Shown piece by piece: positions 15,174 to 18,349 of a DNA stretch of 20,587 nt. Each line of letters begins with the position of its first letter. The first letter of the stretch is position 1. The notes under the pieces are model-generated. The model saw only the letters and a program-made list of their open reading frames with translations. It was not told the origin of the DNA and did not search any database. Position numbers and translations under genes: made by a program. Source of the DNA: a virus (taxonomy: Duplodnaviria; Heunggongvirae; Uroviricota; Caudoviricetes); the IMG/VR virus record IMGVR_UViG_3300029862_000030, positions 1 to 20,587 of that record. One strand, given 5' to 3'.

Positions 15174-15310
15174 AGCCTCACCTCCGCAGCGAACGGATGG
15201 CGTAGTTATAAGGGGAGCGAAAAAGAAAGAATGCGCGATTGCGCAATATGGTAACGTCAGGGTATTATCCACTGGCTGAATAGATCACTTCACGTTTTTT
15301 GTTCCTTGCC

Positions 15311-15338
15311 GCCCGTATCCATATGCGGGCTTTTTTTT
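15311..15338 (+). terminator. Candidate plus-strand intrinsic terminator
   Basis: Plus-strand hairpin GCCCGTAT..ATATGCGGGC (imperfect) followed by T8. Confidence 0.45.
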
Positions 15339-15344
15339 GCATGT

Positions 15345-15374
15345 AAAAAGGCCCCAACACATGTGCGTGGGGCC
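15345..15374 (-). terminator. Candidate minus-strand intrinsic terminator upstream of the holin (possible tR'-like element)
   Basis: Minus-strand reading gives a GGCCCCA/TGGGGCC stem around an 11-nt loop containing the palindrome CACATGTG, followed by TTTTTAC. Confidence 0.45.
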
Positions 15375-15574
15375 TGAGAGTATACATGGTTTCAGTCAAC
15401 TGCATGGTGCCGGGTGCCTCCCGGTGAATTCAGTACCAGCACCTGAATCCGCGATTATCCCATATACCTACTCGCTGATTGCCCATCCGCACAGGGGGAT
15501 TCACCATGCCAGTTTCTTTTAACAAACTCCCCGCAAAACAGACAACTGTCAACCGTCTGAATTGTGAGACATTT

Positions 15575-15603
15575 AAAAAAAAGGCCCGCAAAAGCGAGCC
15601 GGG
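15575..15603 (-). terminator. Intrinsic terminator downstream of the tRNA cluster
   Basis: Minus-strand reading gives CCCGGCTCGC-TTTT-GCGGGCC (7-bp stem with one G-T pair) followed by T8, about 12 nt after the 3' end of tRNA-Arg(TCT). Confidence 0.6.
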
Positions 15604-15614
15604 AAAAATAAGTC

Positions 15615-15691
15615 TGGCGCGTTGTACTGGATTCGAACCAGTGACCGATTGCTTAGAAGGCAATTGCTCTGTCCGGTTGAGCTAACAACGC
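15615..15691 (-). tRNA. tRNA-Arg (anticodon TCT, reads AGA), argO-like
   Basis: Hand-folded from the reverse complement: acceptor stem GCGTTGT/ACAACGC, D arm GCTC..GAGC, anticodon stem ATTGC/GCAAT with loop CTTCTAA, T arm CTGGTTCGAATCCAG, discriminator G and an encoded CCA. Similar to E. coli argU. Confidence 0.8.
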
Positions 15692-15704
15692 AGGGTACAG
15701 ATAA

Positions 15705-15781
15705 TGGACCGCCATCGAGGACTCGAACCCCGCGCAACCAGCTTCGAAGGCTGGTGCTCTATCCTGATGAGCTAATGGCGG
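15705..15781 (-). tRNA. tRNA-Arg (anticodon TCG as read by hand, reads CGA), argN-like
   Basis: Hand-folded: acceptor stem CCGCCAT/ATGGCGG (C1-G72), D stem GCTC/GAGC, anticodon stem CCAGC/GCTGG with loop CTTCGAA, T arm CGGGGTTCGAGTCCTCG and an encoded CCA. The anticodon call depends on my loop assignment. Confidence 0.65.
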
Positions 15782-15788
15782 TATGTGA

Positions 15789-15864
15789 TGGTGGCCCTTG
15801 CTGGATTTGAACCAGCGACCTGGCGATTATGAGTCGCTCGCTCTCACCACTGAGCTAAAGGGCC
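15789..15864 (-). tRNA. tRNA-Ile2 (anticodon CAT, lysidine type, reads AUA), ileZ/ileX-like
   Basis: Hand-folded 76-nt sequence GGCCCTTTAGCTCAGTGGTGAGAGCGAGCGACTCATAATCGCCAGGTCGCTGGTTCAAATCCAGCAAGGGCCACCA, which closely resembles E. coli tRNA-Ile2 (ileX) as recalled. Anticodon loop CTCATAA. Confidence 0.8.
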
Positions 15865-15904
15865 GGGAGCCGCATAATAACGACGCGTAATTAATTCTTC
15901 AATA

Positions 15905-16243
15905 TCATCCGTTCTGGCTGACTAAATCCTGTACTTCCCGAACCGTCTGCTCAAAACGTTCAGTCTCCAGCTCAACGCCAATTGCACGACGCCCGAGCGC
16001 CAGTGCCGCTTTCACTGTCGAACCCGACCCCATGAAAAAATCTGCAATCAGGTCACCCGGACGACTGCTAGCGCTGATTATCTGCTGCAGCATTTCTGCC
16101 GGTTTTTCGCACGGATGTTTCCCGGGATAGAACTGCACCGGTTTATGCGTCCAGACATCGGTATACGGCACCTGCGCCGTCACGCCAAAATACCGCCGCA
16201 GTCGGCATTCACAACCACCAGCGCATTTAACGTTCAGGCACAA
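15905..16243 (-). pseudogene. 5'-truncated DNA N6-adenine/N4-cytosine methyltransferase remnant (C-terminal part only)
   Basis: The 112-aa ORF contains HPCEKP (the HPTQKP-type motif) and DFFMGSGST (the FxGxG AdoMet-binding motif) near its C-terminus. These are the C-terminal half of beta-class amino-methyltransferases. No DPPY motif or N-terminal half is present; the reading frame runs into the AT-rich region upstream of the porin. Confidence 0.6.
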
Positions 16244-16693
16244 AAAAACCCGCTCATCGGCGGGTTTAAGCTGTGTGACGAAGTAACTACTCTTAACAGC
16301 ATAACCAATTTTTTACGTACGTAAACTACTAAATGATATTTGTGAGAATGCCACCGAGTGTTCAAAACACCACCACAAATACATAAGAAAATTTCAACAA
16401 ATAACCAATTAATAATTTCAGATGTTATTTTTAGTTTGTTTAAATTAAGCTAAAGAATTATAGACTGCTTATAAATAAGTTCCATTAATATAAATTAGCT
16501 AATAGATTTATTTTTGTTCAAACAAGAGCCATAAATAGGATTAGATAGAAAAGGTTCAGATAAAAATAGAGATCTACTTCACAAATTAAATGAGAAACTA
16601 AAACTTACATCTTGAAATAATCACATTGATTAGATGAATATTTATCGCGCAGTGACATCATTTTTTAATAATAGTTCAAAAAAAGGGTGTACA

Positions 16694-17776
16694 ATGAAAA
16701 AATTAACAGTGGCAATTTCTGCTGTAGCTGCATCAGTACTGATGGCGATGTCTGCTCAGGCAGCTGAAATTTATAATAAAGACAGTAACAAGCTGGATCT
16801 ATACGGGAAAGTTAATGCCAAGCACTACTTCTCCTCTAATGATGCAGATGATGGTGATACTACTTATGCCCGTCTTGGCTTCAAAGGTGAAACCCAAATC
16901 AACGATCAACTGACTGGTTTCGGTCAGTGGGAATATGAATTCAAAGGCAACCGCGCTGAATCTCAAGGTTCTTCCAAAGACAAAACCCGTCTTGCATTTG
17001 CAGGCCTGAAATTTGGTGATTACGGCTCAATCGATTACGGCCGTAACTACGGTGTAGCATACGACATCGGTGCGTGGACTGACGTTCTGCCAGAATTCGG
17101 TGGTGATACCTGGACCCAAACAGATGTGTTCATGACTGGTCGCACTACTGGTGTTGCAACTTATCGTAACAACGACTTCTTTGGTCTGGTCGATGGCCTG
17201 AACTTTGCTGCTCAGTATCAGGGTAAAAATGACCGCACTGACGTAACTGAAGCCAATGGTGATGGTTTCGGTTTCTCCACTACTTATGAGTATGAAGGAT
17301 TCGGCGTGGGTGCAACCTATGCTAAATCAGATCGCACTGACGGTCAGGTCGCCTATGGTAAGAGCAAATTCAATGCCTCCGGCAAAAATGCGGAAGTATG
17401 GGCTGCAGGCCTGAAATATGATGCGAACAATATCTATCTGGCTACCACATATTCTGAAACTCAGAATATGACCGTTTTTGGTAATAACCATATTGCAAAC
17501 AAAGCACAAAACTTTGAAGCAGTAGCACAATATCAGTTTGACTTCGGTCTGCGCCCATCTGTTGCTTACCTTCAGTCAAAAGGTAAAGACCTTGGTGTTC
17601 ATGGTGACCGAGACTTAGTCAAGTATGTCGATGTCGGTGCTACTTACTACTTTAATAAAAACATGTCCACTTTTGTTGATTACAAAATCAACTTAATTGA
17701 CGATAGTAAGTTTACCAAAACAGCTGATATTGATACCGACGACATCGTCGCTGTAGGTCTGGTTTACCAGTTCTAA
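16694..17776 (+). CDS. nmpC: Outer membrane general porin, NmpC/OmpC/OmpD family
   Basis: The track ORF 16634..17776 contains the signal peptide [23 protein letters not shown] followed by [16 protein letters not shown] and a C-terminal ...VGLVYQF beta-barrel signature, matching NmpC as recalled. The start was trimmed to the MKKL Met; my nucleotide count in that line disagrees with the track frame by 1 nt, so the start is good to about 1 nt. It is on the opposite strand to the phage late genes and preceded by about 370 nt of very AT-rich DNA. Confidence 0.9.
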
Positions 17777-17779
17777 TCT

Positions 17780-17950
17780 GATTACGAAAAAGATATGTTG
17801 CGGGAGGCGTTGCCTCCCCAACATATAAGTGGCTCCCTCAAGCCACTTCCTTTAGAAGCACAACCTTGCTTCTAACTATATAAACCTTCTGTTATATATT
17901 ACCCTTTATTTTTGGGGGCGTCTCAACGCCCCATTTTTAATAATTTTTAG
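17780..17950 (+). ncRNA. Candidate structured 3' region / small RNA downstream of the porin (IpeX-like position)
   Basis: Three successive plus-strand hairpins (GGGAGGC-GTT-GCCTCCC, AAGTGGCT-CCCTCA-AGCCACTT, GAAGC..GCTTC) followed by an intrinsic terminator (GGGGCG-TCTCAA-CGCCCC then ATTTTTAATAATTTTT). In E. coli K-12 DLP12 the IpeX sRNA is reported downstream of nmpC; I cannot verify identity from sequence alone. Confidence 0.35.
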
Positions 17951-17965
17951 TAAACAATTGGCATA

Positions 17966-18349
17966 TTAATTAGAGTTATTAACAACGATATCCATCTCTA
18001 ACTGGATATCTAATGCCATTAACATCCCTTCAATTATGCCCTCAGCCTTCTGTAACCTTTTCCCGATATAACCATCAGAGCAGCAATGCTTACCTGCCAG
18101 TGACATGAATGTCATACCGACTACATAATAATCTACTAATAAATCGTGCAAATCGCTGTTGTTCTTTTTCAGACGGGCCATGCACCCGCAAATGATCATA
18201 GCGTCATCGTCACAACATTGCGGGCGAGATTTTACTTTTGAAGTAATTAATCCCTTAAAACCGGCGGCAATGGACGACCAGGTCACATCTTCATGATTAT
18301 TAGCCGCCCACGCTCCCCAACGCTCAAGAACCATCTGAATATCACGCAT
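17966..18349 (-). CDS. Late-gene antiterminator Q (DLP12 QuuD-like)
   Basis: The 127-aa product from the ATG at 18349 ([22 protein letters not shown]...) matches my recollection of E. coli QuuD. The track ORF starts 5 codons earlier at an alternative TTG. It lies downstream of rusA and ylcG, as in DLP12. Confidence 0.8.

Follow-up and report, generated by a model that had tools for sequence, protein, structure and literature searches.

The 189-nt spacer between the porin gene and the convergent Q gene of this prophage is, judging by sequence identity, almost certainly the ipeX locus, that is, the 3'UTR of the porin mRNA. We consider it very probable that ipeX serves as the 3'UTR and Rho-independent terminator of a porin carried on an inserted cassette, and that it lowers the host porins OmpC and OmpF. 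As to how it does so, our duplex modelling somewhat favors direct antisense pairing through positions 17883-17911, a reading that conflicts with the reviews of this RNA. The element is already known and its occurrence here is routine annotation. The added value lies in a concrete, testable mechanism for an RNA whose action reviews call unknown or indirect, together with the architecture of the cassette. All positions refer to the window, the whole 20,587-nt stretch of DNA that was analyzed.

The spacer (17777-17965) is bounded by the stop codons of the two genes and is 100% identical to the nmpC-quuD spacer of prophage DLP12 in K-12 (NC_000913.3 574340-574528), to the sequence 3' of lc in phage PA-2 (J02580.1 2590-2778) and to phage 434B. 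The sequence-only reading had proposed an IpeX-like RNA from the region corresponding to that of DLP12; because the alignment with ipeX revealed full identity over 189 nt, including the DLP12 and PA-2 copies, the region is ipeX itself and not a mere analogue. The porin mRNA bears the structured region as its 3'UTR, and the encoded protein shares 90-91% amino-acid identity with PA-2 Lc and K-12 NmpC. From the first base past the porin stop to the end of the terminator, the element measures 162-167 nt, the published IpeX being 167 nt long. It thus agrees with DLP12/PA-2 IpeX in sequence, position 3' of the porin stop, strand, terminator end and convergent quuD. IS5 interrupts the nmpC gene of K-12 58 bp short of the stop codon, whereas the present porin gene is intact; the ipeX element itself is no different. 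A 43-codon open reading frame on the minus strand (17693-17824) overlaps the porin 3' end and hairpin 1 and matches in position the 'ORF1' of the 1980s PA-2 record J02580, and is unlikely to be a gene.

Of 5426 complete E. coli genomes, 2510 contain the ipeX spacer, as do 36 phage records. An Rfam search of the region returned no family at gathering score (best permissive matches, E of at least 1), and RefSeq NC_000913.3 (K-12 MG1655), in which micF is annotated, carries no ncRNA annotation for ipeX. Lacking both a family and a RefSeq entry, ipeX will keep being missed by automatic annotation, and we consider it worth recording, given that nearly half of the complete E. coli genomes contain it.

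Reviews describe IpeX as a 167-nt RNA of DLP12 and PA-2 that arises as the 3'-terminal portion of the transcript started at the porin promoter, is then processed, and lowers both OmpC and OmpF. This picture matches the coupling of prophage porin expression to host porin shut-down that had been suggested from the sequence. The reviews also state that IpeX lacks complementarity to the mRNAs it targets, which different reviews name as ompC and ompF or as ompC and ompA, and that it acts without, or not solely via, base pairing. In the literature, the effect on ompC is Hfq-independent, at least some IpeX targets need Hfq, and ompA is a non-target. The RNA was reportedly defined in DLP12/PA-2 by Castillo-Keller, Vuong and Misra in 2006 (J Bacteriol 188:576).

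The plus strand of the spacer folds far better than expected by chance. Its minimum free energy is -65.5 kcal/mol, compared to -32.2 +/- 3.7 kcal/mol for 200 dinucleotide-preserving shuffles, none of which folded as well (z = -8.96), and the minus strand also folds well (z = -6.3). The structured region seen between the porin stop and the convergent Q stop was therefore borne out. The claim of three perfect hairpins held for hairpins 2 and 3, whereas hairpin 1 contains a bulged C, and a fourth, weak hairpin had gone unlisted. The 5' portion of the 3'UTR, unpaired in the centroid fold, would be the start of the 167-nt IpeX if the RNA begins directly past the stop codon. The coordinates of all parts are compiled in the table.

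Table. Parts of the porin 3'UTR and neighboring features, in window coordinates.
Feature	Position	Strand	Basis and details
Late-promoter/leader/terminator module (candidate)	16242-16326	-	Far side of the porin in the window; terminator flagged by scan
Prophage porin gene, NmpC/Lc type	16694-17776	+	Pfam Porin_1, E = 9.5e-151; stop TAA 17774-17776
Unpaired 5' part of porin 3'UTR	17777-17792	+	Centroid fold; 4/16 sites vary among copies
Hairpin 1	17793-17826	+	15 bp, bulged C at 17801, loop GTT
Hairpin 2	17827-17848	+	8 bp, perfect, loop CCCTCA
Hairpin 3	17852-17875	+	9 bp, perfect, loop CAACCT
Sequence CUAACUAUAUAAACC	17872-17886	+	
Hairpin 4	17877-17898	+	Weak, 7 A-U pairs only, loop ACCTTCTG; overlaps predicted seed
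Predicted antisense seed AACCUUCUGUUAUAUAUUACCCUUUAUUU	17883-17911	+	Duplex search, cofold
U-rich single-stranded linker UUACCCUUUAUUUUUG	17899-17914	+	Unpaired in fold; directly 5' of terminator
Rho-independent terminator, 3' end of porin/IpeX transcript	17915-17943	+	Fold and terminator scan
Variable spacer up to Q stop	17944-17965	.	13/22 sites vary
Convergent Q antiterminator gene, QuuD type	17966-18349	-	Pfam PF06530, E = 3e-53; quuD label in identical loci

The strong intrinsic terminator that had been proposed was recovered by both the fold and the terminator scan (17915-17932 plus T5). Its stem (17915-17921 / 17926-17932) comprises 7 bp, six of them G-C, closed by the loop CTCA and followed by T5 at 17934-17938. 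Because the T run lies on the plus strand only, the terminator by itself is a one-directional element. Read on the minus strand, hairpin 1 precedes CTTTTTC (CUUUUUC in the RNA) and could act as a weak terminator for Q read-through, before antisense entry into the porin gene; in L008 and L160, two divergent copies, this U run has shrunk to 3-4. Of the two-way transcriptional barrier that had been suggested, the plus-strand half thus stands, with a terminator and U tail, whereas the minus strand offers only the U run of hairpin 1, which is shortened in divergent copies. The linker resembles an Hfq-binding stretch, by analogy with the known architecture of sRNA 3' modules: a U-rich linker (UUUAUUUUUG) and a G+C-rich hairpin are both present, and the tail consists of U5 followed by AAUAAUUUUU. 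A tail of 5 U is short for a classical Hfq-dependent sRNA.

We analyzed pairing with the host porin mRNAs by a windowed duplex search that includes the opening energies of both RNAs; unrestricted duplex folding was unusable, as it returned meaningless whole-length duplexes. The search predicted that IpeX 17883-17897 (AACCUUCUGUUAUAU) pairs with ompC positions -21 to -7 (AUAUAACAGAGGGUU), forming 15 contiguous base pairs with one G-U pair and covering the SD sequence GAGGG. Cofolding added a second ompC helix, in which 17903-17911 pairs with -31 to -23 (9 bp). For ompF, 17897-17906 (10 bp) and 17891-17895 (5 bp) were predicted to pair within -14 to +2, covering the SD and the start codon. Opening the IpeX side of the duplex costs about 3.4 kcal/mol. 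The total energies amounted to -12.3 kcal/mol for ompC and -9.0 kcal/mol for ompF, compared to -4.1 kcal/mol for ompA and -5.3 kcal/mol for the start region of the phage porin itself; the non-target ompA scores at background level. Cofold ddG values followed the same order (-16.2 for ompC, -10.6 for ompF and -4.9 for ompA). When the targets were shuffled with dinucleotides preserved, the observed energy was matched in 0 of 100 cases for ompC and 2 of 100 for ompF. As a reference, the same pipeline gave -11.8 for the validated MicF-ompF pair at its known site, and -6.3 and -7.7 for the MicF off-targets ompC and ompA.

We then ranked ompC and ompF within a set of 117 start regions, composed of 113 annotated K-12 regions (including ribosomal-protein operons and strong SDs) and 4 test regions. 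Here, ompC took rank 1 and ompF rank 3; by chance, two named genes would both place among the best three of 117 with a probability of about 4e-4. The only gene between them was yheV (L162, NC_000913.3 ~3478792), whose start region reached -10.3 kcal/mol with IpeX 17899-17912. Being an unrelated gene, yheV is either an extra target or a false positive of the method. Across 2.9 Mb of natural sequence, contiguous helices this strong occurred at about 1.8e-5 per nt, and in most of them it was a G+C-rich, tightly paired segment of IpeX that took part. Of 5372 genomes, 5359 carry an ompC leader with at least 99% identity. Owing to the single G-U pair, the longest Watson-Crick-only run left in the ompC helix is 10 bp, which is shorter than the 11-base word of blastn and may explain why word-based searches overlooked it. 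The stronger ompC duplex would be the one needing no chaperone, which fits the reported Hfq-independence of the ompC effect. In the 2006 study, the Hfq-dependent target was reportedly ompF. According to these predictions, it seems somewhat better than an even bet that IpeX is an ordinary antisense RNA directed against the SDs of ompC (15 + 9 bp) and ompF (10 + 5 bp), sparing ompA and its own porin mRNA. The predicted 15-base match to the ompC ribosome-binding site, unreported so far, could explain how IpeX acts.

To follow the variation of the element, we collected 199 copies; across their first 166 nt these fall into 25 distinct sequences, with identities of 89% or more throughout. Among 23 distinct variants the stem of the terminator was unchanging, and the three variable sites of this element all lie in the loop. 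Within the seed (17883-17906), 1 of 24 sites varied, as compared to 28 of 99 in the upstream part comprising the 5' tail and hairpins 1-3 (Fisher p = 0.014). Changes in hairpin 1 were mostly confined to the loop (G to T or A), with one A-U to G-U change in the stem. A single compensatory double change was seen, converting U-A to G-C in hairpin 2 of copy L117. In hairpin 3, A-U was replaced by G-U in 8 of 23 distinct variants and U-A by U-G in one, pairing being kept on the plus-strand RNA only. Overall, three A-U to G-U changes pair on the plus strand only, and one change favors the minus strand. One compensatory pair and a 3:1 plus-strand excess are too little to prove the structure, and because all copies are closely related, seed conservation and covariation alike count as weak evidence. 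H126 was considered as a Q-linked sub-fragment and rejected, being an IS insertion. Two sequences with divergent downstream parts, L092 and L100, appeared on inspection to be host ompC loci, the downstream ORF looking ApbE/Ftp-like by eye. A scan of viral sequences for more distant phage porins with other 3'UTRs returned only porins 99-100% identical to this one.

The surroundings of the spacer were addressed by comparing 30 loci that encode relatives of the present Q. Porin-less relatives, from E. coli/Shigella, Trabulsiella, Pantoea, Citrobacter and Xenorhabdus, showed no similarity to 17777-17965. In the porin-less loci L011-L021, a conserved module of about 85 nt begins 3-30 nt past the Q stop and contains, in order, the partly palindromic GTTTACGTACGTAAAAAA, a -10-like TAnnCT, a short leader and a terminator of the form CCCGCC...GCGGG plus T run. 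In the window, the module lies beyond the porin, with TATGCT as -10-like element, a leader of about 35 nt and the terminator CCCGCC..GCGGG plus T7. A strict sigma-70 scan flagged no promoter at 16242-16326, and we regard the module as a candidate for a late promoter dependent on Q, followed by a brief leader RNA that ends at the terminator. Because porin-less relatives keep this module right after Q, the porin, its upstream region, the ipeX 3'UTR and the terminator (~16327-17949) together represent, by sequence comparison, an inserted cassette, i.e. a moron. The unit is absent from otherwise collinear relatives, in which its flanks are adjacent, and it sits in reversed orientation between the Q gene and the Q late promoter. 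The hexamer GTTTAC is found at both edges, at 17950-17955 by the Q stop and at 16321-16326, where the module starts. The copy by the Q stop, which repeats the first bases of the module, likely marks the cassette edge; the pair looks like a short duplication left by insertion, and could also be due to chance.

Several further elements lie on the minus strand in this part of the window. The ORF at 15905-16243, which starts right past the candidate late terminator, aligns to just the last third of a DNA methylase (PF01555, C-terminal profile positions 135-220 of 221) and has the look of a gene remnant. Three phage tRNA genes (15615-15864), for Arg (TCT), Arg (TCG) and Met/Ile2 (CAT; tRNA-Ile in RefSeq of similar loci), are flanked by the late-promoter module on one side and the lysis genes on the other. 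At 15339-15538, immediately upstream of the holin gene, Rfam STnc100 matches over its full length with 133 bits (gathering score 47). The stretch 15300-17000, which combines the porin cassette with the methylase remnant and the tRNAs, is rare, being covered to at least 80% in only 12 of 5426 complete E. coli genomes. In what lies beyond the porin, namely the methylase remnant, the three tRNAs and STnc100, the present prophage thus differs from DLP12/PA-2.

The direct antisense reading has to be weighed against the published view of an indirect action, in which the structured 3'UTR would lower OmpC and OmpF without pairing, for instance because it sequesters an RNA-binding protein or an RNase, or because it triggers an envelope response. 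The reported absence of complementarity and the ompC effect without Hfq speak for this view, and an RNA with three stable hairpins and a terminator could offer proteins a good scaffold for binding. Nevertheless, a 15-bp helix on the ompC SD does exist, with a Watson-Crick run that a BLAST-type search would miss; the two porins rank first and third among 117 start regions, and the non-target ompA stays at background. Moreover, none of the hairpin loops (GUU, CCCUCA, CAACCU, ACCUUCUG, CUCA) carries a CsrA-type GGA motif, and hairpins 1-3 are more variable than the seed. We assign indirect action roughly the weight of a one-in-four alternative. Less probable still, and in our view unlikely, is that the region merely protects the 3' end of the porin mRNA and insulates the cassette, host porin repression being a multicopy artefact. 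IpeX was discovered as a multicopy suppressor, its levels did not follow OmpC in clinical isolates, and its terminator stem is invariant; inserted cassettes, moreover, typically end in a terminator. Such a role, however, requires neither 140 nt of upstream structure nor a little-varying, weakly folded stretch that matches two porin starts. In addition, single-copy PA-2 lysogens are said to make Lc and lose OmpC.

A function of the minus strand, either as Q late promoter and Q-utilization site or as terminator for transcripts leaving Q, appears very improbable. In lambdoid phages a late promoter normally follows Q, the minus strand folds well, and hairpin 1 with its CUUUUUC would be suited to stop transcripts. 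Against this, nothing in the region recurs in porin-less relatives of the same Q type; these carry the module right after Q, and here it is found at 16242-16326. The minus strand of 17777-17965 also contains no sigma-70-like promoter. The G-U substitutions would become C-A mismatches on that strand, and the A run that yields the U tract is shortened in L008 and L160. We thus rejected the structured region as Q late promoter, qut site or tR': since the location of the module points to an insertion, the promoter/qut reading is largely refuted and the cassette ends, on its 3' side, with the structured region.

Taking the antisense reading as a working model, the porin promoter would give rise to an mRNA whose last ~165 nt form the structured RNA. 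Whether still part of the porin mRNA or released by processing as a 167-nt species, this RNA would lower OmpC and OmpF synthesis post-transcriptionally, as the literature reports, such that the lysogen would exchange its own porins for the phage porin. The weakly folded stretch 17883-17911, directly 5' of the terminator, would act as the antisense seed on the ompC and ompF SDs, and its pairing would block 30S binding. Hairpins 1-3 may be stabilizers or processing barriers, and the U-rich linker, terminator and U tail would constitute the usual 3' module of enterobacterial sRNAs.

If the prediction holds, IpeX shares with MicF and MicC, which repress ompF and ompC, both the targets and the imperfect antisense pairing to start regions. 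IpeX and MicF both carry UUAUUACC, complementary to GGUAAUAA of ompF, and the predicted energies of IpeX-ompC and MicF-ompF are comparable (-12.3 vs -11.8). MicF and MicC, however, are encoded by independent genes of the core genome, each with a promoter of its own, and have their seed at the 5' end, whereas IpeX derives from the 3'UTR of a phage mRNA and has an internal predicted seed. In this respect it resembles the class of CpxQ, MicL, SroC and DapZ, which likewise originate from mRNA 3' ends, share the mRNA terminator and have a conserved seed 5' of a U-rich stretch and terminator; IpeX is also reported to need processing from a longer transcript, as in 3'UTR-derived sRNAs. Compared to that class, IpeX has three extra stable hairpins between stop codon and seed, a short U tail and a reportedly Hfq-independent effect on ompC. 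As a genetic unit, the porin cassette is similar to the lambda bor and lom morons, being a self-contained promoter-gene-terminator unit that is expressed from the prophage and alters the host surface, and IpeX is like the prophage sRNA DicF in acting on core-genome mRNAs. What sets the porin cassette apart from these morons and from the prophage sRNAs DicF and StxS is that it supplies a substitute protein together with an RNA that eliminates the proteins being replaced.

If the predicted pairing is true, a single cassette mRNA would, via its protein and its antisense seed, replace the two main porins of the host. Porins are phage receptors and entry routes for antibiotics, and the pairing would therefore matter for superinfection exclusion as well as for the lowered permeability of clinical E. 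coli.
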